This document shows positions 5,432 through 48,337 of a stretch of DNA of 64,000 nucleotides, one piece after another. Under the pieces are notes generated by a model. The model did no database searches. It was not told where the DNA came from and was given only the letters and a program-made list of their open reading frames with translations. The translations under genes were made by a program, and so were the position numbers. The number at the start of each line of letters is the position of its first letter. Position 1 is the stretch's first letter. Source of the stretch: an uncultured Pirellulaceae bacterium (GTDB lineage Bacteria > Planctomycetota > Planctomycetia > Pirellulales > Pirellulaceae); contig CAYMWL010000021.1 in assembly GCA_964394305.1 (NCBI GenBank), forward strand, positions 7,196 through 71,195. Direction: 5' to 3'.

Positions 5432-5460
5432 ATGAAAATCGGTGGCACGCCGAGGGGCGA

Positions 5461-6867
5461 TTATGCAACGAGTTCTTTTACCACACTGCCTTGCACATCG
5501 GTCAGGCGGAACTCGCGGCCCTGATATTTGAACGTCAGTTTTTCGTGATCGAGTCCGAGCAAGTGCAGCACTGTGGCGTTCAGATCGTGCACATGTACGG
5601 GACGTTCGGCAATGTTAAAGCCGAACTCATCGGTTTGCCCGACGCTGCAGCCACCTTTCACGCCGCCGCCGGCCAGCCATATGGTGAATGCGTCTTTATG
5701 ATGATCGCGACCAGGCTTCGTTTTTTCCCCATTGCCGCCGATACCCTGCGCAAGAGGTGTGCGGCCGAATTCACTTCCCCAAATCACCAGCGTATCGTTC
5801 AGCAGGCCACGGTCTTTCAAGTCGGCGATTAACGCGGCCATGGGTTGATCGACATCGCGAGCTTTTTTGGGCAGACTGTTCTCGATGTTTGCATGATGAT
5901 CCCAATCGGCGTCGTACAACTCCACCACGCGCACGCCACGCTCCACAAGTCGCCTTGCTAACAAGCAGTTGTTGGCAAAACTGGCCTTGCCAGGCTGAGC
6001 GCCGTAGCGCGCGAGCGTTTCAGCCGACTCGGCCTTCAAGTCGATCAACTCGGGTACATTAGTCTGCATGCGATATGCCATTTCGTATTGGCTGATCCGC
6101 GTCGCAATTTCGGGATCGCCTACATCGGCGAGACGCGCTTCATTCAACGCTTTCGTCGCATCGAGTACACGGCGGCGACTTTGTGCGGAATGGCTGGCGG
6201 GATTCGAGAGGTATAACACCGCATCGCCCTGCGAGCGGAACTGCACGCCTTGATTCACGCTCGGCAGAAAACCGCTCGACCACATCGCGGTCCCGGCGCC
6301 ACCAGCATTGCCGCTGAGTAGCACTACATACGCGGGCAGATCGCTGTTGGCGGAGCCCAAGCCGTACGTCACCCAGGATCCAAAGCTGGGCCGATCGCCA
6401 CGGCCGAATCCGGTGTGCAGAAAGATCTGCGCCGGCGCGTGGTTGATCTCTTCTGTGTGCAGCGTGCGTACGACAGCAATATCATCCGCTACCTTCGACA
6501 AATGGGGCAGCAACTCGGAGAACTGCTGACCGCTTTCGCCATGTTGCGCGAACTTGAAACGCGAACCGGAGAGACGTTTTTCCGTACCGAGAAAAGCAAA
6601 GCGTTTGCCGGCCAGTAACGATTCCGGGCAGGGCTCGCCATCACGTTTGATAAGTTCCGGCTTCGGGTCGAACAAATCGAGTTGCGAAGGCGCGCCGATC
6701 ATGTGCAGATAAATCACCCGCTTGGCCCGCGGCTTGAAATACGGCGCTGATCGCGCGGATTCGCCTTGCAACAGTCCCCACAGCGCGAGCGAACTGAGTC
6801 CCATGCCACTGTGCTGGAAGAACTCTCGCCGACTGGCAGGAGTCAGATAGTTCCGATGACTGTCCAT
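5461..6867 (-). CDS. DUF1501 domain protein (planctomycete-expanded)
   Basis: Tat-like SRREFF; [23 protein letters not shown]; WDHH; GSEFGRTP; GRDHH; RLTDV..G.VV end. Confidence 0.93.
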
Positions 6868-6870
6868 GCG

Positions 6871-9756
6871 TCAGCCTTTGGTGATGGTTTCGTCCAAATT
6901 CAGCAGCGCGCTCGCCACGGCAAACCAGGCAGCATCTTCGCCAGCTGCATTACTTTCACCGATAAAGAGCGTTTTCAGAACCTGCAGTTCTTTGGCTTGT
7001 GGAGGTCGTGCGACTGCCAGCCGAAATGCATATTCCAGCTGTGCTTCGAGATCGGCGTCCGGCGTTTCCTTGCGAATTCGCTGTGCAAGGGCACGGGCAG
7101 TGCTGACGTAAACGGGATCGTTGAGAAGTGTGAGCGCCTGCAACGGTGTATTCGATCGCAGCCGCTTCACGCGACAAGACAATCGCGCAGTGGCATCGAA
7201 CGTAATCAAGCTTGGGTTCGGCGACATCCGTTTGAGCACGATGTAGATGCCGCGGCGGTACTGTTCGGAACCAGGGCTGACGGCATATTCGTAGCGTTCG
7301 CCACCGACTTTATTCCACAAGCCATCCGGTTGCGGTGGATAGATGGGCGGGCCGAATTGCTTCTTATCCAATAATCCTGAGATCGCGAGGGCATTATCCC
7401 GAATGCCTTCCGCGCTGAGCCGAAAGCTGGGGCCACGTGCGAGCAATCGATTCTGCGGATCACGCTCCCGTAACCCTGGCGTTTGATGGCTTTGCTGACG
7501 ATAAGTTTCGCTCGTCAGAATCAGCTTCAACAGCCTTTTCTGCGACCAGCCATTCTCGCGGAACTCGACGGCAAGCCAATCGAGCAACTCCGGGTGTGAC
7601 GGCAATTGTCCTTTCAAACCAACATCTTCCGGCGTGCTGACCAGTCCTTCGCCGAAGATCTCGAGCCAGAGGCGGTTAACGGCAACGCGTGCCGTGAGCG
7701 GATTCTCGGCCGCCATCAACCAGCGAGCGAGCGCACTGCGATCGCCGGCGTTTGTCGGCAGTTTCGGCAACACTGCTGGCGTAGCGGCTGAGACTTCTTC
7801 ACCAGGGGTTCGAAAGTCGCCGCGTTGCATGAGGTGAGTCGACCGGGCCTCAGTCACCTCTCGCATCACGAGCGTCCGTGGCGATTTAAGGCCTTTTAAC
7901 CTGGCCTCGGCAGCGGACAATTGCGACAGCAGTTCCCTTTCCCCGGCGGGCTGAGCTTTACTACTGCTCTGCGTGGCTGACGTGAGAGCGGTGATGCGCA
8001 CCCGCCCGATCGTGCGCGCTTGACCGAATTCCTGCACAAGCTTGATGGTCAGCTTCATTCCGTCGCTGCCCTTCAATGGCTCGGCGAACTGAAAATCCGC
8101 CCAGTGTGCCTGTTGAAATCGCGGCGCAATCGCCCAACCGGATTTCGGATCGCCATCGACAGCACCGGCGACATCCCACTTTTCTTGTGAGAAACTGGCT
8201 CCTGTCGCGGTCATCTTCAAAGACTTCGCATTGTCCGGAGACGAAATCGCAGCGGCAGTCGCGGTGAATTCATGCAAGACAAAATTCGTACGTTTCGGAT
8301 CTCCCCGGCCGGGCCCAGTTCCTGGCAACGAAGGATCCGTCAGCGCTTCCAACTTCAGTCCGACAATCTGCGGCAGCTTCGTTTCAAAGGTCAAAGTGTA
8401 CGTGTCAGTTGCGGGCGGATCCCCAACTAATAGCACGGAACCGTCGTGGAGAATCTTGTGCCCCGCATCCCCAGCAGAATCGAACTCGCTCGGCGTGAGG
8501 ACCTCTTCGTTAGACGTCTCACTCGTGTCGTTGCGAATCGCCTTCGCTCTTGTGAGTTGTTTCTGCAGCAAACCGATCTGCGTTTCCAGTTGCTGTCGAC
8601 TAGCTGCAGTCGCAGGATCGTTCAAGTCGAGATACGGGCCAATGAAGCGAATGGAGCCTGGCACTTTAGGATTTGATCGTTCCGCTTCGATTTCGGTTTG
8701 GTTGAAATAAGCGAACAGCGAGTAGTAGTCGCGCTGCGTGATGGGATCGTACTTGTGATCGTGGCACTGAGCACATTCAAGAGTCGTACCGAGCCAAATC
8801 GCGCCGAGCGTGTTTACCCGATCGAAAACCTGGTTGACGCGGTTTTCTTCTGGATCGGTCCCCGCTTCAACATTGCACGGCGCACAGCGATTGAATCCCG
8901 TGGCGACGCGCTGCGCCTCGGTTGCTTGGGGCAACAGGTCCCCCGCGAGTTGCTCAAGCGTGAATTGGTCAAAAGGCTTGTCGCCGTTTAGCGCGCGAAT
9001 CACCCAGTCGCGATAAGGCCAAAGATCGCGCAGATCATCGCGTTGAAAGCCGTGGGAATCGGCGTAGCGGGCCGCATCGAGCCAAGGCCGCGCCCATTTC
9101 TCGCCATATTGCGGTGACTGCAGCAGTTGATCGACCAACGCTTCGACAGCCTTTGGCAAGTCCTTAGTTGCAGCTTGTTCGAACGCTGTAACTTCAGCTG
9201 GTGAAGGCGGCAAACCGATGATGTCGAGATACAAACGCCGCGCGAGCACGGCAGGTTGAGCGGGCCGGGAGGGTTGCAGATCGGCGGCTTTTAGTTTCGC
9301 ACGCACGAATGCATCGACGGGATGCAGGTGAGCAATCGGCAACGCTGCTTTGCGTGGTGGCAGATAAGCCCAATGCGGCGCCGGCTTGGCCCCGTCAGGC
9401 CAGATTGCTCCTTCCTCGATCCAGGCTTTGATTTGAGCGACTTCGACCGCGGTCAGTGGCTCGCCGCGGTTCGGCATCACGTCGCGATCGGTCGTCGGCA
9501 GGGAAACTCGCCGCAGCAGTTCGCTGTCGGCCGCGTTCTTCGCGATCACCACCGCGCCGCTGTCGCCGCCTTTATTCAAGGCTGCCGCTGAATCGAGACG
9601 CAAACCGCCAGCTGCTTTCTTATCACCATGACATTCAAAGCAGCAACGCTGCAATATCGGGAGCACATCGCGCGCGAAATCGGTTTCCGCCGCGTTGATG
9701 CGGGGCAACGCGACGCCAATCAATCCCAACACAATCAGAAATCGCTGCAAACACAT
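6871..9756 (-). CDS. PSD1 / planctomycete cytochrome c / DUF1549 / DUF1553 protein
   Basis: Start moved to MCLQRF (9756), which gives a signal peptide and removes the overlap with the upstream gene. Heme motifs CFECH and CAQCH; YGEKWARPWLDAARYADS; NRLWLEIFGEGLV; NTPLQALTLLND. Confidence 0.92.
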   Translation of the reverse strand: MCLQRFLIVLGLIGVALPRINAAETDFARDVLPILQRCCFECHGDKKAAGGLRLDSAAALNKGGDSGAVVIAKNAADSELLRRVSLPTTDRDVMPNRGEPLTAVEVAQIKAWIEEGAIWPDGAKPAPHWAYLPPRKAALPIAHLHPVDAFVRAKLKAADLQPSRPAQPAVLARRLYLDIIGLPPSPAEVTAFEQAATKDLPKAVEALVDQLLQSPQYGEKWARPWLDAARYADSHGFQRDDLRDLWPYRDWVIRALNGDKPFDQFTLEQLAGDLLPQATEAQRVATGFNRCAPCNVEAGTDPEENRVNQVFDRVNTLGAIWLGTTLECAQCHDHKYDPITQRDYYSLFAYFNQTEIEAERSNPKVPGSIRFIGPYLDLNDPATAASRQQLETQIGLLQKQLTRAKAIRNDTSETSNEEVLTPSEFDSAGDAGHKILHDGSVLLVGDPPATDTYTLTFETKLPQIVGLKLEALTDPSLPGTGPGRGDPKRTNFVLHEFTATAAAISSPDNAKSLKMTATGASFSQEKWDVAGAVDGDPKSGWAIAPRFQQAHWADFQFAEPLKGSDGMKLTIKLVQEFGQARTIGRVRITALTSATQSSSKAQPAGERELLSQLSAAEARLKGLKSPRTLVMREVTEARSTHLMQRGDFRTPGEEVSAATPAVLPKLPTNAGDRSALARWLMAAENPLTARVAVNRLWLEIFGEGLVSTPEDVGLKGQLPSHPELLDWLAVEFRENGWSQKRLLKLILTSETYRQQSHQTPGLRERDPQNRLLARGPSFRLSAEGIRDNALAISGLLDKKQFGPPIYPPQPDGLWNKVGGERYEYAVSPGSEQYRRGIYIVLKRMSPNPSLITFDATARLSCRVKRLRSNTPLQALTLLNDPVYVSTARALAQRIRKETPDADLEAQLEYAFRLAVARPPQAKELQVLKTLFIGESNAAGEDAAWFAVASALLNLDETITKG

Positions 9757-9764
9757 CGGTTCGG

Positions 9765-11252
9765 CTATTCCTTCTTCTCTTGCTTCTTTTTTGCAGGCTG
9801 CTTTTTGTTCTTTCCTTCGTTTTGATAGGTCTTCCACCAGGTAGGGCCTTCGGCTTCGATCTCGGCATTGAGCTTTTTGAGCGCGGCCTGCATTTCAGCA
9901 AATTTGGCTGGCTCTTTGGTGGAGAGGTCCTTCTCTTCCTTTTGATCCGTACTTAAATCATACAATTCGAACTTCGTTAGCGGCTCATCAGCAACAAGCT
10001 TCCAATCGTCAATCCGCATTGCCGTCTTCATTGGCCCCGGGGCAATGACGCACCGCCAATAAAGGGGCCGATCGCGTTTCACCGGCTTATGCTCGAGAGC
10101 GGGTAGCAAATCACCGCCATCGAGGACTCGATCGGTGGGTAACTTTGCGCCGGCGACTTTCACTGCGGTCACAAAAATGTCCGAGCCAATTACCGGAATG
10201 TGGCTGGCCGTGCCTCCAATGACATTTTCGTTTTTCAGGGCTTTAGGCACGCGTACAATGCCCGGTACGCGAATGCCGCCTTCATACACTGCTCGCTTGC
10301 GACCGCGCAAGCCGCCGGTAGAACCGCGGCCGGGAGTTTTCACGCCGTCCCCTTCTGGGCCGTTGTCGGAGGTGAAAATCACCAAGGTATCGTCAGTCAG
10401 CCTCAACTCATCGAGCGTTTTCATCAACTTGCCAAACGCTGCGTCGAGCTGCGAAACATTTGCGTGATGCTCGCGCTGTACGTCGTCCGTCAGATTAGGA
10501 TAGAGCGCCTTGAACTCCGCCGCGGCCTTGATCGGATAGTGAGGCTCATGAGCCCATACCGAAAGTAAAAATGGCTTGGCAGAATTTCGTTTTTCCTTCA
10601 GCCACGTCGCGGCTTCATCGACAATGAGGTGCGATGAGTAGCCTTCGATCTTCCCCACAGATTTGCCGTTGCGTACGAAGTTAGTGGGGTTCTCATGGCT
10701 TGGCGCCGCGTTGTTTTGCGTGGCCAGCCAGTAGTCGTATCCGTGCTCGTTGGGTTGCGGCTGTGTGGGCTGATTGAAATGCGAGTTGAGATGCCACTTA
10801 CCGACGTGGCAAGTTTCGTAGCCCACGTCCTTCAGCAACTTCGGCAGCGTGATCTCGCTGGTTCGCAGATGGATTTCACGGTTTTCCGGAATCCAAGTGA
10901 ACACACCATTGCGGTAGGGCGTGCGACCCGTGAGGATCGCCGAACGCGACGGGCTGCAAACAGCACTCGCCGAGTAACACTGCATCAGCGTTACGCCGCG
11001 TTTAGCAAATTCATTCAGATTCGGCGTTTTGATCAGCGGATGGCCATACAACTCAAGATCGCCGTAACCGAGATCATCGGCAAGTATTAGCACTACATTT
11101 GGCACCCGATCGGTGCGCGGTTTCTGTTCGCAATTTGCCGTACGAACTGACACACAGAGGCAACAGGTGATAAGGATACACGTAGCTAACGAGTGCGTCT
11201 GACCGTCCAAATATTCGGCTGGGAAACGGGGTATTGTTTGGTGAAGGAGCAT
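9765..11252 (-). CDS. Arylsulfatase-family sulfatase
   Basis: PNVVLILADDLGYGDL; CSPSR; GKWHL; TSDNG; YEGGIRVP. Start uncertain; 11252 chosen over 11414. Confidence 0.92.
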   Translation of the reverse strand: MLLHQTIPRFPAEYLDGQTHSLATCILITCCLCVSVRTANCEQKPRTDRVPNVVLILADDLGYGDLELYGHPLIKTPNLNEFAKRGVTLMQCYSASAVCSPSRSAILTGRTPYRNGVFTWIPENREIHLRTSEITLPKLLKDVGYETCHVGKWHLNSHFNQPTQPQPNEHGYDYWLATQNNAAPSHENPTNFVRNGKSVGKIEGYSSHLIVDEAATWLKEKRNSAKPFLLSVWAHEPHYPIKAAAEFKALYPNLTDDVQREHHANVSQLDAAFGKLMKTLDELRLTDDTLVIFTSDNGPEGDGVKTPGRGSTGGLRGRKRAVYEGGIRVPGIVRVPKALKNENVIGGTASHIPVIGSDIFVTAVKVAGAKLPTDRVLDGGDLLPALEHKPVKRDRPLYWRCVIAPGPMKTAMRIDDWKLVADEPLTKFELYDLSTDQKEEKDLSTKEPAKFAEMQAALKKLNAEIEAEGPTWWKTYQNEGKNKKQPAKKKQEKKE

Positions 11253-11526
11253 GAACCACCAACTGGAAAGAAGAGTTGCCGACGAACGAGGGGCAGTATC
11301 CACCGAGAGAATTTGCCGGTCAACACGCTGCCAGGAACGACGAAGCGAATGCCCCTCCCTGACGACAAGGGTGAAAGAGTTCGGGCCCCAGCGATCTAGC
11401 GGCAGCAGAGCCACCCAAGCGACTTAAACAGACTCCATTTTCTAAGATGGCAATTAATCAAATAGTGATCGCCTCGGCACAATGAACCCATAGTTGCAGC
11501 AATTTGTTTATGGCACCGACCGACAC

Positions 11527-12090
11527 TTAACTCGCAAACGCTGCGTTCAAGTCATGCAGGCACTTCCGCTCGGCGTCCGAGATCGCATTGAAGCCCAGAA
11601 TTCCCCCCGCCGCCGCAGCGATTTTTTCGGCCCGGCCCATGATGCCGTCTTGAATCTTTACGGCCAGCACCGGCCCTGCCTTCGCCGTTAATTCCTTGAC
11701 GTACACCTTCCACAAGTCAAGTGCCGCAGCCGAAGGCCGGGCATCTAGCCAGTTCTGCAAAAAGACGTAGAACGGATGATCCTTTTGCACTCCCAAGTCA
11801 AGGGTTGCTTTGAGAATGGCGTTCTTCTCAGCAGCCGAAACCTGTCCATCGCACCAGGCGACTTCGACGAGTGGCAAAATTGCAATCGTTGGCGGCACAT
11901 CAAGCCCCGGGGCCAAGTGGGCCATTTCGTGCTCGGTCAGGCCGAGTGTCACCGCGAGCAAGCGTTTCTTTTCGGCCTCGTTCAATTCACTCCGCAGTTT
12001 CTCGATCAACTGCCGATCGCGTTCAGCAAAGTAAGCATCTTCGAGGCTTTTGCCACGGGCATGCAGGGAATCGAAATCGTGGGCAGACAT
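11527..12090 (-). CDS. Hypothetical protein with TerB-like domain
   Basis: LVEVAWCDGQVSAAEK...I resembles the TerB-like A.aDG.v...E motif; charged N-terminal helix. Confidence 0.6.
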   Translation of the reverse strand: MSAHDFDSLHARGKSLEDAYFAERDRQLIEKLRSELNEAEKKRLLAVTLGLTEHEMAHLAPGLDVPPTIAILPLVEVAWCDGQVSAAEKNAILKATLDLGVQKDHPFYVFLQNWLDARPSAAALDLWKVYVKELTAKAGPVLAVKIQDGIMGRAEKIAAAAGGILGFNAISDAERKCLHDLNAAFAS

Positions 12091-12173
12091 CGGATTATCT
12101 TTCTAGGGAGAGACTCAGTTGCTCAGCAATCAAATTAACCCGCAGACCGGAGCCCGCAAAGTAGGTACTGCCC

Positions 12174-12263
12174 GTAGTCGGAGCACTGCTCCGTCCAGAA
12201 TTGACGCAGACCGAATCTCAACGCTGGCACCCACCACCTGAACGGTGCAGTGCTCCGCTCTAC
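12174..12263. repeat. Inverted doublet of GTAG-type REP-like palindromes
   Basis: GTAGTCGGAGCACTGCTCCG at 12174 and, on the minus strand, GTAGAGCGGAGCACTGCACCGTTC ending at 12263; each is GTAG followed by a short palindrome. Confidence 0.55.
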
Positions 12264-13528
12264 AGCTTCGCCTCAGCCGCCGCGGCGTGTTGCAGTGCCT
12301 CTTCAATTTCCTTTTGCTTTACTCCTTCGCGGCCGTCGTAGCGCAAAAACTTTGGCAACAGCAAAGCCAGCCCAAGGATCGCAACAATGCACAACAACCC
12401 ACCGGAAACAACCGCCTGCTGCACGCCGTACTTCTCAGCCACGATGCCCATCTTCGCGTTCCCCAGCATCGGTCCTGCGAGGTATGAAATCATTTCGATG
12501 CTTGCCAGGCGGCCGCGCAGATAATTCGGAATCGTTTGATTCCAAATCGAGCCGCGAAAAATGCCGGAGATGGCATCGAAAAAACCGGCGAAAATTAAAA
12601 ACGACAATGCCAGCCAAACGTTCCCAGCCCAGCCAAACGCCAGAATGGCGACTCCCCACAACACAGCCGCTGCGGTAATCAGCAAGCCGTGGCGATGCGC
12701 GTGCCTGGCCCAGCCCGACGTCAGACTAGCGAGCAAAGCGCCGGTGGCGATCGCGGCAGGAAAGAGACCGGTGAACTGCTTCCCATAGATTTCCCCAAGC
12801 GCCGGATAAAGCGCCTGCGGCATCGCAAAAAACATCGCGGCAAAATCAACGAGATAAGTGCCGAGCAACTCCTGGCGGCGGAGAGCGTACGACCAGCCTT
12901 GCAAGGTGCCGCGCAGTGTCGGCCGCTCTGCATGTTCGCGACCGGGATCTGCCCGTAGCATAAACACCGCGACGAGTGACGCGAGAAACGTCAGCACGTC
13001 AAAAGCATACGCGGCTATCGCACTATATTGCGTAGCCACAATCGCACCGATAGCCGGACTGATGATCGCGCCCAGGCACCACCGCAACGAATTGAGTGCC
13101 ACCACTGCCGGCATGTGTTCGGCGGGAACGACCTTCTGAATGAACGACTCAAACGCGGGCCGTTGCACGGCCGCAAAGCCTGCATGCAGTGCGACCGCCA
13201 CGAACAACACCCACACCTGCGGCTGCGCGAAGCATGAATTCAGCAGCAGCAAGGCCGTCGCCAGCGTTTGACCGATCTCTGTGACACGCAAAATTTGCCG
13301 GCGATCGAACGCATCCGCGAGCGCGCCGCCGAAGAACGCCAGCAACACCATCGGCACGAACTCGGCGAGATAGATTAAGCCGACCATGCCATCGGATCCG
13401 GTCAGATTGCGCATTTGCACCGGCACGACGATGAAGGTCATCATCGAGCCAAAAAAAGAAATCAACTGCCCAAAGAACAGCAGTCGATAATCGCGCGAAA
13501 CCCGCAGCGGCGTAATGTCGAGAAGCAT
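12260..13528 (-). CDS. MFS transporter (EntS/DHA3-like)
   Basis: About 12 TM segments; GGALADAFDRR motif A; RDYRLLFFGQLIS start; QTIPNYLRGR. Confidence 0.9.
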   Translation of the reverse strand: MLLDITPLRVSRDYRLLFFGQLISFFGSMMTFIVVPVQMRNLTGSDGMVGLIYLAEFVPMVLLAFFGGALADAFDRRQILRVTEIGQTLATALLLLNSCFAQPQVWVLFVAVALHAGFAAVQRPAFESFIQKVVPAEHMPAVVALNSLRWCLGAIISPAIGAIVATQYSAIAAYAFDVLTFLASLVAVFMLRADPGREHAERPTLRGTLQGWSYALRRQELLGTYLVDFAAMFFAMPQALYPALGEIYGKQFTGLFPAAIATGALLASLTSGWARHAHRHGLLITAAAVLWGVAILAFGWAGNVWLALSFLIFAGFFDAISGIFRGSIWNQTIPNYLRGRLASIEMISYLAGPMLGNAKMGIVAEKYGVQQAVVSGGLLCIVAILGLALLLPKFLRYDGREGVKQKEIEEALQHAAAAEAKL

Positions 13529-40323: not shown

Positions 40324-40997
40324 TCGAACTGCAAAATCTTTCGCTTCGCGCCGGCGCGTTCTCGCTGTTGAATGTAGACTTGCTGATTCCTCAGGGAACG
40401 TACGCGGTGCTGATGGGCGGTACGGGACAGGGAAAGACTTCGCTGCTCGAGGTTATCTGCGGCTTGAAGCCAGTCGCCGCGGGAAAAGTCCGACTTGCCG
40501 GACAGGACGTCACGCATTGGAAACCCGCCGACCGCGGCATTGGCTATGTGCCGCAGGACCTGGCGCTCTTTCCGACGATTTCGGTTCGTGGCCATTTGGA
40601 ATTTGCGCTCAAGTTGCGGAACTGGTCGACTGCGGCAATGCGCGACCGCGTCGCTCACCTCGCCAGCGTGCTCAGCATCGAACATTTGCTCGATCGAGGC
40701 GTGCGGCATTTGAGCGGCGGCGAAGCGCAGCGTGTGGCGATCGGCCGCGCGATTTCTTTCGAGCCTGAAGTGCTGCTGATGGATGAACCACTCAACGCGC
40801 TGGATGAAACGACTCGCGATCGACTCTGCAATTTGTTACGGACCATTCATGCCCAAATCAAGTTGACGACGTTGCATATCACACATAGCCGCTCAGAAGC
40901 TCGACAAGTCGCTGATAAGTTCTACTTTCTCGTGGCTGGCAAGCTGCAAGAACGCCCCGTGTCTGAACTTGATGGACTCGCCAACCACTTTCACTGA
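40320..40997 (+). CDS. modC: ABC transporter ATP-binding protein (ModC-like, no TOBE domain)
   Basis: GGTGQGKTS; YVPQD; LSGGEAQR; LLMDEP; ITHS; ATGA overlap with modB. Not separately listed in the ORF track. Confidence 0.88.
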   Translation: MIELQNLSLRAGAFSLLNVDLLIPQGTYAVLMGGTGQGKTSLLEVICGLKPVAAGKVRLAGQDVTHWKPADRGIGYVPQDLALFPTISVRGHLEFALKLRNWSTAAMRDRVAHLASVLSIEHLLDRGVRHLSGGEAQRVAIGRAISFEPEVLLMDEPLNALDETTRDRLCNLLRTIHAQIKLTTLHITHSRSEARQVADKFYFLVAGKLQERPVSELDGLANHFH

Positions 40998-41007
40998 TTC
41001 CGTCCCC

Positions 41008-41289
41008 ATGAAACTGATCGTCAAATATTCCGCACAACTTCGCACGGCCTTGCAACGGGCCGAGGAGGTGATTGAACTGCCGCCGGCGAGCCGGCTGTCC
41101 GAACTGCTGCTGCATCTCGCCGAACGCCATGACTCCGGCCGGCCGCACTTGCTGAACGCCAAGGGAAACGTCCAAGCCAGTTTGCTCGTTGTGGTGAACG
41201 AAGCTGCAGTGGCGGCGAACGACGCAACCACGTGGCAACTCAACGAAGGCGATGTGGTCCTTTTATTGCCGCCAATCGCGGGAGGATAG
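41008..41289 (+). CDS. MoaD/ThiS family sulfur-carrier protein
   Basis: 93 aa, ubiquitin-like fold pattern; ends LNEGDVVLLLPPIAGG with C-terminal GG. Confidence 0.92.
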   Translation: MKLIVKYSAQLRTALQRAEEVIELPPASRLSELLLHLAERHDSGRPHLLNAKGNVQASLLVVVNEAAVAANDATTWQLNEGDVVLLLPPIAGG

Positions 41290-41295
41290 TGGGCC

Positions 41296-42048
41296 ATGAC
41301 AGAGCTGCCTCCACTAACTCCCGAAGAACGCCGTCGATACGAATGGCAACTTTGGGTCCCCGATTTCGGCGAAGCCGGCCAGCAGCGATTGAAAGCCGCG
41401 ACGGTTTTGGTTTCCCGTATCGGCGGCGTCGGTGGCACCGCCGCATTGCAACTCGCGGCGGCGGGAGTGGGCAGATTGATACTTGCCCACGGCGGCGAAC
41501 TGCGGCTCAACGATCTCAATCGCCAGTTGCTCATGACGACCGCGGGCATCGGCGTGCGACGAGTCGAACTCGCAACCGAGCGTTTGCGCGAACTCAATCC
41601 GCATGTCGAGATTGAAACCGTCGCCGAAAATTTCAGCGAAGCCAATGCGGCCGAACTCGTCAGTCGCTGCAATTTGATCATCAGCGCGGCGCCACTCTTT
41701 GCCGAACGAATGCTGATGAATCGCGAAGCGGTTCGCCAACGCAAGCCGCTCATCGACTGTGCGATGTACGAGCTGGAAGGTCGCCTGACGACGATCATCC
41801 CCGGCCAAACTCCCTGTCTCGCTTGCATGTATCCTGAGCCTCCGGTCAATTGGAATCGCGAATTCCCGGTATTCAGCGCGGTTTCATCAACTGTGGGATC
41901 GATGGCAGGCATGGAAGCAATCAAGTTGCTGGCGAGCTTGGGTGAACCGCTGGCGGGGCGACTCCTCGTTTTCGATTTGCGCGACATGAGCTTTCGCAAG
42001 CTCTCGATCGCGCGCCGCGCTGACTGTGCCGTTTGCGGGGAACTGTAA
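41296..42048 (+). CDS. HesA/MoeB/ThiF family adenylyltransferase, HesA-like
   Basis: RYEWQLWVPDFGEAGQQRLK; GGVGG; ILAHGGELRLNDLNRQ; LTTIIPGQTPCLAC; CAVCG. Confidence 0.9.
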   Translation: MTELPPLTPEERRRYEWQLWVPDFGEAGQQRLKAATVLVSRIGGVGGTAALQLAAAGVGRLILAHGGELRLNDLNRQLLMTTAGIGVRRVELATERLRELNPHVEIETVAENFSEANAAELVSRCNLIISAAPLFAERMLMNREAVRQRKPLIDCAMYELEGRLTTIIPGQTPCLACMYPEPPVNWNREFPVFSAVSSTVGSMAGMEAIKLLASLGEPLAGRLLVFDLRDMSFRKLSIARRADCAVCGEL

Positions 42049-42059
42049 GGAATAGGGCG

Positions 42060-45000
42060 ATGACCAATAAATTGCTGCCGCTGTTGCTGTATCTGTTCGT
42101 TGGGACCGCGACCGCCGCCGATTGGCCGATGTATCGCGGCGATGCGGAGCGAACTGGCTACACGGCTGAACCGCTCCCTGCGAAGCTGTCGCTGGTGTGG
42201 ACTTATCGTCCCACGCATCCGCCGACTCCGGCGTGGCCACGAGACGATCGCATGCTCTTTGATCGTGCCAGCGATGTGGTCATCAGCGGCGGCGTGGCAA
42301 TCTTCGGCAGTTCCAGCGATAGCCAGGTGATCGCGCTCGATGCTGCAACCGGCGCGCATCGGTGGACTTTTTTTGCCGATGCTCCCGTCCGATTCGCGGC
42401 GGCCATCTGGCACGACAAAGCGTTCATCGTGAGCGACGACGGCATGTTGTATTGCCTCGCGGTTGCTGACGGCAAATTGTTGAACCAATGGCGCGGCGGT
42501 CCCACCGATGACTTGATCCTCGGCAACGGCCGGATGGTTTCGCGCTGGCCCGCGCGCGGTGGACCTGTCATTCGCGATGACATCGTCTATTTCGCCGCAG
42601 GCATCTGGCAGTCGGAGAGAATCTATCTGACTGCGATCAACGCGGAGACCGGCAAACAGATTTGGCAGAATGACAAGGCGGGGCAGATCTACATGCCGCA
42701 GCCGCACGGCGGCGCGATGGCCAACAGCGGTGTGTCGGCGCAGGGCTATCTGGTGGCGAATGACAACGAGTTGATCGTGCCCACCGGCCGTGCAGTCCCT
42801 GCCGGTTTCGCGCGGCGGAGTGGTGAGTTTCTTTACTATCACTTGCAAGCCAACGGACACATCGGCGGCACACAGACGGTCGTGGCCGATGACACGTTCT
42901 ACAACGGTGGCTCGGCGTTTCGAAACGAAAATGGCGCGCTCGTGGCCAAGTTGGGAGTTGGATCGATCGCGGCAACTCCAGCCGGCACGTTGTTTGGCAC
43001 GAAGAAAGATGTGCGGCTCGTCAAATTGATCGAGAAGACTGCGCCCGATCGCAAAGGGGTACCGACGAAAACAATGGACCACCAGGTGGAATGGTCCGTT
43101 GCTGATGTCGACGGCAGCGCGTCCCTCATTGTTGCTGGCCACGTCGTCGTCGCCGGAGGCAGCATTAGCGGAGGCAACGGCAAGGTGACAGCCATCGATG
43201 TGCAGTCGCAAAAAATACTCTGGTCCGCAGAAGTCGCGGGCATTCCGTATGGTTTGGCCGCAGCGAATGGCAAACTCTATGTCAGCACCGATCGCGGCGA
43301 AATTCATTGCTTTGCAACAGAAGCGAGTTCCAAACCAGCAGTTATTACTCTGCCGCAAACAAAGATCGTTGCGAATGCCCAAGCGACGAAGGCTGCGCAG
43401 GAGATCCTGCGGAAAACGAGCGTCACTGAAGGATTCTGCCTCGATCTCGATTGCGACGACGGCGAATTGGCCGTTGCCTTGGCTCAGCAATCGAAGTTGC
43501 AAATCTATGCCGTTCATTCCAGCGCTGAAGATGTCGCCGCGTTGCGAAAAAAGTTGGCCGCGGCCGGCTTGTACGGCACTCGCATCACTGTACATCAAGG
43601 CACCCGTGACAAGCTCCGCTACGGCAAGTACTTTGCGGACCTCGTGGTTTCCAGCCAATCGCTGAAGTCGGGACCAATCCCCTCGACGGCAGATAAGATT
43701 CCCTCGGCGCTTCGACCTGCTGGCGGGCAACTCTGCTCCGGCAAGGTTGGCAACATGGAAACGTTCCAACGCCCCGCCCTTGCTCGTGCGGGGAGTTGGA
43801 CGCATCAATACTCCGATCTCGGCAATAGCAGTTGCTCGACCGATGAGATTGTGAAAGGTGACTTGCGGGCCCTCTGGTTTCGCGATGTGGATCTCGAAAT
43901 GCCGCAACGGCATGGCCGCGGTCATGCGCCGCTGTTTCAAGACGGCCGAATGTTTGTCGAAGGAATGGGTGCCCTCCGCGCGGTCGATGGTTACAACGGC
44001 CGCAACTTGTGGGAGTTCCCGCTGCCGAACATTCAAGCTGCGTACAATGCCGACCATCTGTCGGGAACTTCGGTGACTGGCAGCAATTTCTGCGTGGCCG
44101 ACGGCAACGTGTATGTGCACGACAAGTTGCAATGTTACCGTCTCGATGCCGCAACTGGTCGCAAACTGGGGGAATTCAAGACGCCCGTCAATAAGGACCG
44201 CAAGCCTGGTTCGTGGGGCTATATCGCCAGCGACGGCAAGTTGCTGTTTGGCTCGGTCGCCAATCCGCAGCATGTTGCTCGCTTTGCTTGGAAGTTCGCC
44301 GATGTGAGCGAGTTGTGGGGCGAATCGGCGACGTTTTTCGCGCTCGATGCCAAGTCCGGCGAACTGCGCTGGAAATACGACGCCGAGGAATCGATCCGTC
44401 ACAATGCGATCACGATCGGCAACGGCCACGTTTATTTGATCGACCGCGCCATCGCCAAAGAAGACAAGCTGACAACGGTCGACAAGGCCGGTAAGTTGCC
44501 GGCCGTCGCGGCGGTGAAGCATTCGCCGGGACAGATCGTCGCGCTCGATATCAATACGGGAGAGATTGCTTGGAAAGGGGAACGCGATGCCTTCGGCACT
44601 GTTCTCTCGCTTAGTCCGCAGCACGACACGCTGCTGATGAGTTATCAATCGACGCGGTTCAAGTTGCCTTCGGAAGTCGGCGGCAAGTTGGCTGCCTATC
44701 GCGCAAGCACGGGCAAACCTCTGTGGCAAAAAGAAGCCAAGTACGTTACCCGTCCGCTGATTAACGATCGCACCATCTACGCCCAAGGAGGCTCTTGGGA
44801 TCTGATCACTGGCGAAGAAAAAGGCTTCACGTTGAACCGCTCGTACGGCTGCGGACAGTTCGCGGGCTCGAAGCACATGCTGCTGTTCCGTTCCGCAACA
44901 CTTGGCTATTTGGACCTGTCTCGCGGCTCGGGCGTCGAAAACTACGGTGGTATCCGCCCCGGCTGTTGGATCAACGCGCTTCCCGTCGGCGGCCTGGTGC

Positions 45001-45083
45001 TGGTGCCCGATGCCTCGGCGGGCTGTGCCTGCAGCTATCAGAATCGAAGTTGGATGGCGCTGTCGGGGACGGGGGATGAGTGA
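42060..45083 (+). CDS. Exported PQQ-binding-like beta-propeller protein with central methyltransferase-like domain
   Basis: Signal peptide + DWPMYRGD; Trp-docking repeats (ALDAATG..RW); LDLDCDDG insert; second propeller starting WTHQYSD; C-terminal YGCG, RPGCW, GCACSY. Confidence 0.85.
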   Translation: MTNKLLPLLLYLFVGTATAADWPMYRGDAERTGYTAEPLPAKLSLVWTYRPTHPPTPAWPRDDRMLFDRASDVVISGGVAIFGSSSDSQVIALDAATGAHRWTFFADAPVRFAAAIWHDKAFIVSDDGMLYCLAVADGKLLNQWRGGPTDDLILGNGRMVSRWPARGGPVIRDDIVYFAAGIWQSERIYLTAINAETGKQIWQNDKAGQIYMPQPHGGAMANSGVSAQGYLVANDNELIVPTGRAVPAGFARRSGEFLYYHLQANGHIGGTQTVVADDTFYNGGSAFRNENGALVAKLGVGSIAATPAGTLFGTKKDVRLVKLIEKTAPDRKGVPTKTMDHQVEWSVADVDGSASLIVAGHVVVAGGSISGGNGKVTAIDVQSQKILWSAEVAGIPYGLAAANGKLYVSTDRGEIHCFATEASSKPAVITLPQTKIVANAQATKAAQEILRKTSVTEGFCLDLDCDDGELAVALAQQSKLQIYAVHSSAEDVAALRKKLAAAGLYGTRITVHQGTRDKLRYGKYFADLVVSSQSLKSGPIPSTADKIPSALRPAGGQLCSGKVGNMETFQRPALARAGSWTHQYSDLGNSSCSTDEIVKGDLRALWFRDVDLEMPQRHGRGHAPLFQDGRMFVEGMGALRAVDGYNGRNLWEFPLPNIQAAYNADHLSGTSVTGSNFCVADGNVYVHDKLQCYRLDAATGRKLGEFKTPVNKDRKPGSWGYIASDGKLLFGSVANPQHVARFAWKFADVSELWGESATFFALDAKSGELRWKYDAEESIRHNAITIGNGHVYLIDRAIAKEDKLTTVDKAGKLPAVAAVKHSPGQIVALDINTGEIAWKGERDAFGTVLSLSPQHDTLLMSYQSTRFKLPSEVGGKLAAYRASTGKPLWQKEAKYVTRPLINDRTIYAQGGSWDLITGEEKGFTLNRSYGCGQFAGSKHMLLFRSATLGYLDLSRGSGVENYGGIRPGCWINALPVGGLVLVPDASAGCACSYQNRSWMALSGTGDE

Positions 45084-45113
45084 AAAACACCGCCGCCTTG
45101 TACGGGGGAATTT

Positions 45114-45374
45114 GATAACACTTTTTGTGTCTGCTTGAAAGTTGCAACGGGTGAATTGCGCAATACTTGCGCATGAACAGGGAACAAGTTTGATAACATC
45201 GCGACCCTGGTTTCGGAGGACCGAAAACCGACGCAAGCGGTGTTTTATTAAGGACTTATGTCGCAGTCGGCATATCTTCGTTGTTAACATCGCGATAACC
45301 CGTGATAACCACTGACAAGTGCTCAATAAGCCTTCGTGCCAATTTGATAACGCTCTCTGATAACACCTGATAAC
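45114..45374 (+). other. Non-coding GATAAC-box element, copy B (convergent intergenic region)
   Basis: GATAAC at 45114, 45192, 45294, 45304, 45346, 45359 and 45369, plus GTTAAC at 45283; all on one strand. Confidence 0.75.
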
Positions 45375-45537: not shown

Positions 45538-46218
45538 CTAGTTCCCTGGCACTCGCGCCGTTTCCACGCGCGGCGGAATGAGCAGCGTTACGCCCAGCGG
45601 CAAGATCTCGGGATCCGCGAGGCGATCGAGATTGGCCACGTGGATTTCTCCCGCGCGGCCGCCATCGCCTAGATAGCGTTGCGCTAAAGCAGTCAGCGTG
45701 TCCCCTTCGACGATACGATGTTTCCGCCACAGCGGACCTGGTTTGGCTTGAGCTTCTTTGGCCGCAGCAACCTCATCGGCCGACGGGAGTAAGGGTTCAT
45801 GCACCGGCAAGTTCGTGTTGGGACCGTGGCTGATTTTGGTCGGACCGGGCACTTGCGGCGAAGAACCGGGATCCGAGCCCACCGGCACGAGCAGCGATTC
45901 GTACGACATGGGTAAGAACGGCGGCGCGGGCAATGCTTCCAGCGGCGGTTCTGTGGCCGGCACGGTTTGAAATGCGGCGGGCCGTGTCAACCGCCCCGGA
46001 GAAGTAGAAACCGGTGGCAGTTCTGGAGCAGGCGACTGACCGGGCTGCGAATGAACTTGCAGCGTCAAATCCTGCGGCGGCGACCAGGTGAGCGCGGGGC
46101 TCTCGTGATCGACGGACAAGGGCTGCGGCGCGACGGGCCGCGCATGACGAAAGGGCCACGCGAGCGCCACGCCGCCGGCCATCACCGCGCCGGCAATGAC
46201 AAATCGTTTGTAACTCAC
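45538..46218 (-). CDS. LysM peptidoglycan-binding protein
   Basis: N-terminal TM, Pro-rich linker, C-terminal LysM (HRIVEGDTLTALAQRYLG...N...L.DP..LPLGVTLLIP). GTG start at 46218 preferred. Confidence 0.85.
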   Translation of the reverse strand: MSYKRFVIAGAVMAGGVALAWPFRHARPVAPQPLSVDHESPALTWSPPQDLTLQVHSQPGQSPAPELPPVSTSPGRLTRPAAFQTVPATEPPLEALPAPPFLPMSYESLLVPVGSDPGSSPQVPGPTKISHGPNTNLPVHEPLLPSADEVAAAKEAQAKPGPLWRKHRIVEGDTLTALAQRYLGDGGRAGEIHVANLDRLADPEILPLGVTLLIPPRVETARVPGN

Positions 46219-46423
46219 AGCACCGCTCCACGCACAACTTGCTTGGAACGGCCTTGTTCCGCAGCGATCAACGCCTTTGGGATAGATTCCGCAGCAAATT
46301 CCCACACTGCGGCAACTCGCTTTCGCGGCGAGCTGATTCGTCCGTGGCTGTCATCGGCGCGTGCGAGCGTGCGGAGCGAATGATTTTTCGCGCAGCGAAA
46401 GTACCGCTAAAGAGCGAAGAGTT

Positions 46424-47278
46424 TCACAAACCGATTGCATAAGGCTTAACGAGCGGCGCGAGAACTGCGTAGGCCTGGGCGGCCGCTACGGGAGCCATGT
46501 GACTGTGCCGGCTGAGCTCCACATGCACGCCGCCGCGATAATTCGCGGAGCCCAGGGCGGCAATGATCGGCGGAAACTCCATCTCTCCTTCGCCAAACAT
46601 CAGGTGTTCGTGCACGCCGGCCCGCATGTCTTCGACGTGCACGTTGACGATGTACGAACTCCAGCGGGTGATGTAATCGGCGATCGGCACTTCCCCTTGG
46701 CAGTAGAGATGCCCCAGGTCGAGCGTCAATTTCAACTGCGGCGAATCGACCCACTGCAACAACCGTTGAAAGCGGCTCATCGAATCGATGAACATGCCCG
46801 GCTCTGGCTCGAAGCCGATAGGCGTGCCGAGTTTCTCCGCCTCACGCAGCAAAGGTTGCAGGCCGTTGGCGAGGCGATCGAGCAAGGTTTGATCATCGGC
46901 AACCGACTCTGCATCAGGCGTTCCTGACCAGAGCGAGACGCAATCGCTTTCGAGTTCTGCGGCAGCTTGGAGCGAGCGCACTAAGAAATCGATTCGTCGT
47001 TCACGATCAACCTCCGCAACCGACAGCAGCGTGGGTTGATGCTTGCGACGCGGATCGAGCAGAAAGCGTGCACCGGTTTCAATGACCGATGAAAGTTGCA
47101 AGCGGCGAAGCGTGGAGCGCAAACGCTGCAAGTTGGCAGGCCAATCGGCGGCAAACGGATTCAGATCACCGTGATCGAGTGTAATCGCCACGCTGCGATA
47201 ACCGAGTTCGGCGATCAGTTCGAGCGCTGCAAACGGGTCGTGATGAGCCCAGCCATTCGTGTTGTAGCCGAGCCGCAT
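46424..47278 (-). CDS. Sugar phosphate isomerase/epimerase (TIM barrel), ebo-cluster type
   Basis: MRLGYNTNG; ITLDH; IETGARFLLDPRRKHQPTL; FEPEPGM; DLGH; HVEDM...HEHLMFGEGE; ELSRH. Confidence 0.88.
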   Translation of the reverse strand: MRLGYNTNGWAHHDPFAALELIAELGYRSVAITLDHGDLNPFAADWPANLQRLRSTLRRLQLSSVIETGARFLLDPRRKHQPTLLSVAEVDRERRIDFLVRSLQAAAELESDCVSLWSGTPDAESVADDQTLLDRLANGLQPLLREAEKLGTPIGFEPEPGMFIDSMSRFQRLLQWVDSPQLKLTLDLGHLYCQGEVPIADYITRWSSYIVNVHVEDMRAGVHEHLMFGEGEMEFPPIIAALGSANYRGGVHVELSRHSHMAPVAAAQAYAVLAPLVKPYAIGL

Positions 47279-47311
47279 GCCTGAATCCTGATTGCTTTCT
47301 GACAGAACAGA

Positions 47312-48337
47312 TTACGTAGAATAAACCCATTTGCCGAGGAGCACCGCGGGCCCGAGCAGCATGACGACGACAATCGCATAGACCGGAGGGCCGGCAGCCA
47401 GACAGACCGCGGCGTCAAGCATGATGATTGACAGGATCGCATGTTTCACAGCGCCTTGCACCAAGGCAGAAGAACCATCGAGGGCCGCGGCCACCGCGCG
47501 GCGGAGGATCGTGACCGTTAACAAGGCGAGCAATGCCGGATAAACCCAGTTGGGTCGAATTTGCAACTTCGTCAGCCATGCGGCCGAGCCCATTAGCATC
47601 ACGCCGCAGAGCATCACCATCACTCCCAGCAGCAACTTGAGTGTTTGGCTTTTTTCTTCGGCTTCGGACTTGGCGTAAACAGTAATGCCAACGACATAAA
47701 CCCCGATGCCTACCGCGATCAACCATTCAGCGTGAGTGTATCCCAGCCAGAAAAGGTCTTTGCCGACGTACGGACCAGCCAGACTCATTCCCAGCAACAC
47801 ATTCAGCAGCCGGCAGCAGCCCATGGCGAGGGGACCGACCAACGTTTTTTTCAGAATCGCGTCGTACGCCAAGACGGCAACCGCCAGCAGCGTGGCGATC
47901 ACGCCGCTCCGCCAAGGATGGGCGACGGGCAGGATCGGATCGTTTTGATAGAGATATCCGGCCAGCCAACCAAACCCAACTCCTAGCAACAACATGACAA
48001 ATCCCAAGGCCCGAGCCTGAGCAATGGCAATCTGGCCGGACGGGAGCGGGCGGAAGGGGCGTTCCTTTTTATCCACCTCCAGGTCAAACACGTCGTTCAG
48101 CACCATGCCCGCGGTATAGAGCAGCGCAGACGCCAGAACCAGGCAGGCGAGGGCTCCACCAGGGCTGAAGGAATGACGCGTAAAGACATACCCCATCAGC
48201 ACATCGGATACAGCCGTAAACACGTTGGGCAGCCGCATTAACCGCAGTAGCGGCAGGAGCGGCCCCAGGGGAGAACGCCGCGGCCGCTGAAAGTCGGCCG
48301 TTTCCAAGGGGGTGCCAGTTTCGGCAGGGTTATTCAC
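47312..48337 (-). CDS. UbiA family prenyltransferase (EboC-like)
   Basis: LMRLPNVFTAVSD; GMVLNDVFDLEVDKKERPFRPLPSG; YD...K; MGCCRLLNVLLG; multiple TM segments. Confidence 0.88.
   Translation of the reverse strand: MNNPAETGTPLETADFQRPRRSPLGPLLPLLRLMRLPNVFTAVSDVLMGYVFTRHSFSPGGALACLVLASALLYTAGMVLNDVFDLEVDKKERPFRPLPSGQIAIAQARALGFVMLLLGVGFGWLAGYLYQNDPILPVAHPWRSGVIATLLAVAVLAYDAILKKTLVGPLAMGCCRLLNVLLGMSLAGPYVGKDLFWLGYTHAEWLIAVGIGVYVVGITVYAKSEAEEKSQTLKLLLGVMVMLCGVMLMGSAAWLTKLQIRPNWVYPALLALLTVTILRRAVAAALDGSSALVQGAVKHAILSIIMLDAAVCLAAGPPVYAIVVVMLLGPAVLLGKWVYST

Follow-up and report, generated by a model that had tools for sequence, protein, structure and literature searches.

BamB (YfgL), YxaL and other PQQ_2 (PF13360) proteins are extracytoplasmic, eight-bladed beta-propellers, and the pyrroloquinoline quinone (PQQ)-dependent alcohol and methanol dehydrogenases are periplasmic propellers built from the same type of blade repeat. 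A third point of reference is given by the class I S-adenosylmethionine (SAM) methyltransferases (Methyltransf_25, Methyltransf_11 and the structure 3dlc). Here, we describe an exported protein with two such propellers and, between them, a domain with the fold and motif order of these methyltransferases. Its gene lies on a stretch of 64,000 nucleotides from an uncultured Pirellulaceae bacterium (assembly GCA_964394305.1, contig CAYMWL010000021.1, positions 7,196 to 71,195 of the forward strand), which we call the window. The gene belongs, as an ordinary member, to a very large, undescribed exported family of the Planctomycetes-Verrucomicrobia-Chlamydiae (PVC) group. Its C-terminal propeller carries four never-varying cysteines, and its methyltransferase-fold domain has lost key residues of the canonical SAM site. 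The protein is laid out as follows (residues are counted from the ATG at 42060):

42060..45083, + strand: the whole gene, 1007 residues plus stop (list of open reading frames, translation, an identical 1007-residue database record, codon-usage scoring)
42060..42116, + strand: Sec-type signal peptide MTNKLLPLLLYLFVGTATA, with predicted cleavage before ADWP (n-region, core, A-x-A site)
42123..43349, + strand: N-terminal PQQ-type (BamB-like) beta-propeller, residues ~22-430 (Pfam, AlphaFold, Foldseek)
43365..43769, + strand: compact class I methyltransferase-fold domain, degenerate, residues ~436-570 (Methyltransf_25, 3dlc, AlphaFold)
43791..45068, + strand: C-terminal eight-bladed propeller, residues ~578-1003 (AlphaFold secondary structure, Foldseek)

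After the signal peptide, the build is a PQQ-type propeller, a class I methyltransferase fold and an eight-bladed propeller. The preliminary description of this DNA took the Rossmann-like part for an insert in a propeller; it is instead a separate domain between two propellers, and PQQ_2 and PQQ repeats flank the Methyltransf_25 match on both sides. A full-length AlphaFold model made from 36 sequences (predicted template modelling score, pTM, 0.80) shows the first propeller and the beta/alpha domain (436-570) with high confidence. The N-terminal propeller has a predicted local distance difference test score (pLDDT) mostly above 85, and its Foldseek matches are BamB and the PQQ-alcohol dehydrogenases. 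A deeper alignment of the C-terminal domain (120 sequences, including a malectin-bearing paralogue at 33-39% identity) yielded a model with a mean pLDDT of 91.9 and a pTM of 0.93. The modelled domain has eight four-stranded blades, and an N-terminal strand (fragment residues 37-44) forms the outer strand of blade 8 and closes the ring. This propeller is the best-conserved part of the superfamily.

The export signal, already proposed in the preliminary description, looks Sec-type, as it does in the aligned homologues. That is, MTNKLLPLLLYLFVGTATA has a positive n-region, a 15-residue hydrophobic core and an A-x-A site, is followed by AD, and is rated as exported by a custom heuristic rule. The residues D21-W22, at the mature N-terminus directly after the signal peptide, are invariant across homologues. 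A signal-peptide-like N-terminus is found in all 36 aligned homologues and in 106 of the 111 diverse representatives with a locatable DWP motif.

More than 1700 close homologues of about 1000 residues are on record and, where they are named at all, they are called ‘BamB’ or ‘PQQ-binding-like beta-propeller repeat protein’. BamB itself is a lipoprotein of ~390 residues with a single propeller and neither a methyltransferase fold nor the cysteine module, whereas the window protein has 1007 residues and two propellers. Unlike BamB, its signal peptide ends in A-T-A before an alanine, with no lipobox. The structural likeness between BamB and the C-terminal domain is at the level of a Foldseek template modelling (TM) score of 0.56 when normalized by the query (0.63-0.70 when normalized by BamB). 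We rejected BamB as an identity for the protein because it scores 71.8 bits against TIGR03300 and 63.4 against NF008351, for equivalog cut-offs of 285.2 and 423. The database label ‘BamB’ is an over-annotation.

The PQQ dehydrogenases, whose active site sits on the axis at one face of the propeller, were rejected in the same way (64.9 bits against TIGR03075, cut-off 480; 36.3 against TIGR03074, cut-off 833). Methanol dehydrogenase also has a vicinal Cys-Cys pair, and the cysteines of the window protein are not of that kind. In the 96%-complete source genome there is no match to PqqC, although the PqqC control was likewise silent in all 14 control genomes and PQQ could be scavenged; for PqqE there are only PqqE-like radical SAM matches far below the cut-off. 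A Foldseek search with the C-terminal domain returned only generic PQQ-type propellers. The best match was tetrathionate hydrolase of Acidithiobacillus ferrooxidans (PDB 6l8a and 7cqy, E 9e-17, TM 0.57-0.59), a cofactor-less exported enzyme with a PQQ-like propeller. Identity is only 15-17%, and tetrathionate hydrolase has neither the four-cysteine module nor a methyltransferase domain.

What sets the C-terminal propeller apart is a group of four cysteines. Their codons, proposed in the preliminary description to start at 44850, 44964, 45024 and 45030, are exactly placed (residues 931, 969, 989 and 991) and fall in three loops:

44850..44852, + strand: Cys931 (YGCG), loop that links blade 6 (strand D) and blade 7 (strand A) (430 of 430 sequences; AlphaFold)
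44964..44966, + strand: Cys969 (RPGCW), loop that links blade 7 (strand D) and blade 8 (strand A) (430 of 430 sequences; AlphaFold)
45024..45032, + strand: Cys989-x-Cys991 (GCACSY), blade 8, 14-residue loop joining strands B and C (all 423 complete sequences; AlphaFold)

A family alignment had been named beforehand as a check on these residues, and it bears them out. We tallied 430 C-terminal domains (~252 effective sequences at 80% identity, with identity down to ~33%), seven of which are truncated before the CxC motif, and all four cysteines are present in 423 of the 423 complete domains, far beyond chance. The other cysteine pair of the propeller, C678/C692 on adjacent strands of blade 2, is conserved in only 59% and 97%. 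The full module, YGC ... FRS ... R-x-x-C ... C-x-C-S-Y plus WTH and RHG, is present in the window protein and is 88-100% conserved over the 430 domains.

Besides the residues of the blade motif, the polar positions conserved in at least 85% of domains are T581, H582, N589, S593, D595, R617, H618, N782, D795, R927, R944, S945, R966, N972 and Y993. All of them map to D-to-A loops, to B-to-C loops or to the coil before the first strand. In a propeller, the D-to-A and B-to-C loops share one face, so the model puts the four cysteines on one face of three adjacent blades (6-8), with other conserved polar residues. Two of the four sit four to five residues ahead of innermost strands in the model, and we infer from the loop topology that convergence of the cysteine loops would be geometrically easy. 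Such a pattern is what a functional centre at the top of the propeller would give, with the four cysteines as part of it, and is unlike that of scattered stabilizing disulfides. No PDB entry covers the module, either by sequence profile or by fold search. Mean-field direct coupling analysis of 430 and 298 domains gave top couplings that are gap or indel artefacts; with ~170-250 effective sequences for 438 columns, and with invariant cysteines, it is without power, and the lack of coupling among the three cysteine loops in its top 1500 comes from a method that is powerless at this depth.

The domain between the propellers tells a different story. Its Methyltransf_25 match in Pfam is borderline (27.8 bits for a cut-off of 27, E 4e-6), but the assignment to the class I methyltransferase fold is sound, since the family profile matches PDB 3dlc, a SAM-methyltransferase structure, at E 3e-14. 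AlphaFold places alternating beta/alpha elements at residues 440-550 with pLDDT above 90. Two sites within the domain depart from the canonical sequence:

43440..43463, + strand: motif I, LDLDCDDG, where canonical relatives have (V/L)DLGCGDG (alignments, tally of 469 domains)
43515..43517, + strand: His486 at the end of beta2, at the position of the ribose-binding Asp/Glu (canonical IVAID; alignments)

The unusual motif I pointed out in the preliminary description is there as given. It runs D464-C-D466-D-G468, so that Gly1 and Gly2 are both replaced by Asp and the GxGxG pattern is lost. The acid at the end of beta2, which is Asp or Glu in most members outside the window's clade, is His486, and the alignments show Thr in place of the motif III Asp. 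Compared with the class I enzymes, the domain is also compact (~135 residues) and exported. With these four positions changed, the window's copy could hardly bind SAM in the canonical way, and these alignments support the earlier idea of a pseudo-methyltransferase for this protein.

The superfamily as a whole behaves otherwise. In about half of it, GxGxG is retained along with the beta2 acid and the Asp of motif III, as in class I methyltransferases. We scored 469 domains for the three motif I glycines and the acid at the end of beta2, and 246 were canonical. The canonical motif was found in 74 of 149 diverse representatives, in 85 of 117 malectin paralogues and in 63 of 84 genome loci at 46-79% identity. 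In the window's clade (~60% identity or more; 82 domains), by comparison, the first glycine is Asp and the acid is lost. The state in which the second glycine is gone as well, with no acid, is confined to 12 of the 469 domains: the window protein and 11 others. The canonical state of motif I thus persists across phyla in proteins that bear signal peptides, with independent decay in several lineages. That it is the majority state among exported proteins is odder than its loss in the window protein. Going by the motifs, either many members would bind an adenosyl ligand outside the cytoplasm, or the motif would be kept for structural reasons. SAM is not known to occur outside the cytoplasm.

The family is large and widespread. 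At E<=1e-30, 2072 clusters (50% identity) were found among 1.84 billion cluster representatives; many of these align end to end and many have extra C-terminal domains. Alignments with hundreds of proteins run over residues 8-1002. According to genome records, the family occurs in Planctomycetota, Verrucomicrobiota, Omnitrophota, Kiritimatiellia and Phycisphaerae, and in an even sample of phylum genomes 10 of 61 carry the family domain, with up to 9-11 matches in one genome. A literature search found no paper on the architecture of twin propellers with a methyltransferase fold and no published function.

Hints at a substrate come from the longer members and from neighbouring genes. A paralogous lineage of ~1225 residues (P0122) has the same build plus a malectin domain, and the source genome carries one of these on contig C25. 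Among 34 long members, the added domains are Malectin (16), CHB_HEX_C/Fn3_assoc (14), 3-keto-disaccharide-hydrolase (LamG-like; 10), Laminin_G_3 (4) and CBM9 (2). Sulfatase genes occur among the family's neighbours, and the malectin paralogue adjoins genes for a BD-FAE-family alpha/beta hydrolase and a GDSL lipase/acylhydrolase. These fusions and neighbours suggest glycan-related work outside the cytoplasm.

Some further records touch on the spread of the family and its surroundings. On the metagenome contig L005, the family gene lies between two sulfatase genes of the same strand, 4124-5977 and 9050-10465, from which it is separated by 23 and 22 nucleotides. A protein of 1478 residues from a eukaryotic proteome set (P0101, eukprot g8411.t1) shows 57% identity across the methyltransferase fold and the C-terminal part and has Kelch-type matches; it is likely to be bacterial contamination or a chimeric gene model. 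Contigs with close homologues are labelled Candidatus Kuenenia stuttgartiensis (L016), Candidatus Nealsonbacteria (L050), Chthoniobacterales (L019) and Planctomyces sp. SH-PL62 (L017). Some of these labels of metagenome-assembled genomes look mis-binned or mislabelled, at 50-71% identity to a Pirellulales protein.

We propose the following picture. The working centre would be the top face of the C-terminal propeller, built by the D-to-A and B-to-C loops, with WTH582, R617-H618, N782, D795, R927, R944-S945, R966, N972, Y993 and the four cysteines as its residues. The three cysteine loops of blades 6-8 would meet there, and the four thiols would form one centre. A Cys-ligated metal or a reactive-thiol site seems somewhat likelier for this centre than routine structural disulfides, because the genome shows no known disulfide machinery and its exported proteome no disulfide signature (see below). 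The methyltransferase-fold domain would ancestrally be of the SAM-binding type, with the four canonical residues named above lost in the window's lineage, and here it most likely serves just as a rigid connector or a docking surface between the propellers. Outside the cytoplasm, a glycan or some other envelope polymer is the probable substrate, given the carbohydrate-binding modules on longer paralogues and the sulfatase and esterase neighbours. Taken as a whole, this account of an exported family with a cysteine centre, a relict methyltransferase and a glycan substrate is plausible, but it falls a little short of what we would call probable.

Its strongest competitor is that the four cysteines form two structural disulfides, in which the two cysteines of the CxC motif pair with Cys931 and Cys969 and staple the irregular last blades and their long loops together. 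On this view the cysteines would have no chemistry of their own, and the conserved His, Arg and Asp residues would do the work. A CxC motif paired with two distant cysteines is a common stapling pattern, the cysteines lie in loops rather than in buried strands, and C678/C692, on adjacent strands of one blade, are so placed that they could form a blade disulfide. The four cysteines themselves, on the other hand, fit this explanation less well: their conservation stays at 100% even in paralogues of only 33% identity, a stricter record than that of C678/C692.

The source genome itself bears on the same question. At 96% completeness it has no match to DsbA (PF01323), Thioredoxin_4 (PF13462), DsbB, VKOR or MauE, all of which were searched with control genomes that do match. 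Most of the sampled planctomycete genomes that bear the family are also without a DsbA-family match (2 of 10 have one; 10 of 61 sampled genomes overall). We also compared cysteine counts in exported and cytoplasmic proteins, a test whose idea comes from work by Dutton et al. that is cited in a recent preprint (10.64898/2026.03.05.709764). Over 3767 genes called by codon usage, 1029 of which encode predicted exported soluble proteins, proteins with an even number of cysteines make up a fraction of 0.473 in the exported and of 0.460 in the cytoplasmic set (Fisher p = 0.55). The cysteine contents of the two sets are similar, at 0.92 and 1.07 per 100 residues, respectively. The missing Dsb-type machinery and the lack of an even-cysteine bias speak modestly against ordinary blade disulfides. 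As an aside, the source planctomycete may lack routine periplasmic disulfide formation or use an unrecognized route.

Several points weigh against the metal or thiol centre and the wider picture built around it. An even number of invariant cysteines in a Sec-exported protein is the classic picture of two disulfides. The even-cysteine test is crude, with a home-made gene caller and signal-peptide rule and without a positive-control genome. In the models, the CxC loop has the lowest local pLDDT of the C-terminal domain (~63), and in the full-length model, made from a shallow alignment, pLDDT falls below 50 over residues 925-995, which is the cysteine region. We found no metal-binding family, solved structure or paper that backs a metal site. 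The glycan link, for its part, is drawn from fusions and scattered neighbours alone. Finally, a recent preprint reports that ~20% of the species in its data set are without DsbB, VKOR and MauE, and that structures with structural disulfides have been solved from 13 species without any of the known pathways (10.64898/2026.03.05.709764). Altogether, we regard two structural disulfides as a real possibility, though not as the expected outcome.

A different role for the cysteines, as a redox relay that exchanges electrons or sulfur with a partner, would make the protein an extracytoplasmic thiol or sulfur-transfer enzyme. A candidate partner exists. Proteins of the P0123 family (375-400 residues) have a signal peptide and a C-terminal membrane anchor, and their invariant cysteines are one directly after the signal peptide (A-C-N-V-P-V-F-R) and those of a G-x-C-x-C-E motif. 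In 7 of 86 homologous loci (L001, L003, L004, L015, L016, L020 and L059), the gene for this anchored three-cysteine protein adjoins either the malectin paralogue or both family genes. The same arrangement is seen on contig C25 of the source genome, where the paralogue (L011:7426-11214, +) is followed by a P0123-type gene (11192-12364, +) whose longest frame overlaps it by 23 nucleotides. The P0123-type protein is a possible dedicated partner of the four-cysteine propellers. However, its gene is not beside the gene in the window and is missing from most loci, and the family has no Pfam, NCBIfam or PDB match, that is, no thioredoxin or other known fold that can be detected by sequence. The fold match to tetrathionate hydrolase, an enzyme of sulfur compounds, points the same way as the relay, but its TM score is hardly above that of BamB. 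MauE, proposed as a third route of disulfide formation, has a CxC motif as its active site (10.64898/2026.03.05.709764). On this evidence, we consider a redox relay unlikely. Around the malectin paralogue in the source genome there are no MacB-type ABC genes.

The canonical motifs in so many relatives invite another explanation, namely that the superfamily consists of extracytoplasmic enzymes that use SAM or a SAM analogue. In these enzymes, the site of four cysteines, His and Arg would act as a metal-thiolate that binds and activates the acceptor, and the window's lineage would have dropped methyl transfer and kept the centre. About half of the exported members keep the canonical signature, apparently under long-term selection across PVC phyla. 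There are precedents of a kind in Ada, MetE/MetH and ArsM, cytoplasmic proteins in which a methyl-transfer module is combined with three or four cysteines that bind Zn or As and activate the acceptor. The analogy is one of function only, with no relation of sequence or fold; the cysteines of the window protein belong to a propeller, and many lineages do without the methyltransferase motif. We would rate this explanation as quite improbable.

Gene neighbourhood has also to be considered. Immediately upstream of the gene there are two others:

40969-41289, + strand: ThiS/MoaD-like gene, whose product ends in Gly-Gly (Pfam)
41296-42048, + strand: ThiF/HesA-like gene, whose stop lies 12 nucleotides before the ATG (Pfam)

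Further upstream lie genes for a tandem ModA-type binding protein, an ABC permease and an ATPase, and this order recurs in Anatilimnocola aggregata and on a single metagenome contig. In the window, in L001 and in L003, the family gene is on the strand of thiF/hesA and follows 8-36 nucleotides after it. ThiF is upstream in only 6 of the 86 homologous loci, all at identities of at least 65%; at the more distant loci examined, Symmachiella among them, the neighbours are unrelated. The arrangement is thus synteny of one shallow clade and not a feature of the family, and we rejected functional coupling to ThiS/ThiF and ModABC as a family trait for that reason. That the protein is the exported end of a molybdenum or tungsten-sulfur system, with the upstream ModA, ModBC, MoaD-like and HesA-like proteins and with thio-molybdate or thio-tungstate bound by the four cysteines, is very improbable: the close spacing downstream of a ModA-type ABC importer speaks for it in that one clade, but hundreds of members whose neighbours are unrelated have the same invariant cysteine module, and MoaD- and HesA-type proteins are cytoplasmic while the window protein is exported.

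On the other side of the gene, a LysM-domain protein is encoded at 45538-46305 (-), and adjacent genes for a xylose-isomerase-like TIM-barrel and a UbiA-type prenyltransferase follow at 46424-48337 (-).

The open reading frame is real. It has 1016 codons and spans 42033-45083 (+), with a TTG at 42033 as an alternative start (1016 residues), and the identical database record (P0002) starts at the ATG at 42060 and has 1007 residues. A longer antisense open reading frame (40893-45326, -, 1477 residues) extends over the entire gene and the neighbours upstream of it. This frame is a GC-rich shadow, since a codon-usage gene caller trained on the source genome prefers the gene on the + strand, and homologues are found only for the + frame, with none for the antisense one. 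A gene caller based on length would wrongly favour the antisense frame.

Among the exported families of Planctomycetota, Verrucomicrobiota and related groups, the one to which this gene belongs is one of the larger, and it is currently mislabelled as BamB. It poses two puzzles: a canonical SAM-binding fold that is maintained outside the cytoplasm, and a never-varying four-cysteine module in organisms that seem to be without the known disulfide-forming pathways. In this context, the window protein is of moderate interest as a single copy, and the family is of higher interest. The window protein offers a natural motif-dead control, against which its canonical relatives, such as the Symmachiella dynata protein (P0109), can be compared to ask whether the methyltransferase fold carries out chemistry or is a mere scaffold for the propellers. 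If the cysteine centre does bind a metal or is redox-active, then polysaccharide-degrading bacteria would have a new kind of propeller enzyme in their envelope.

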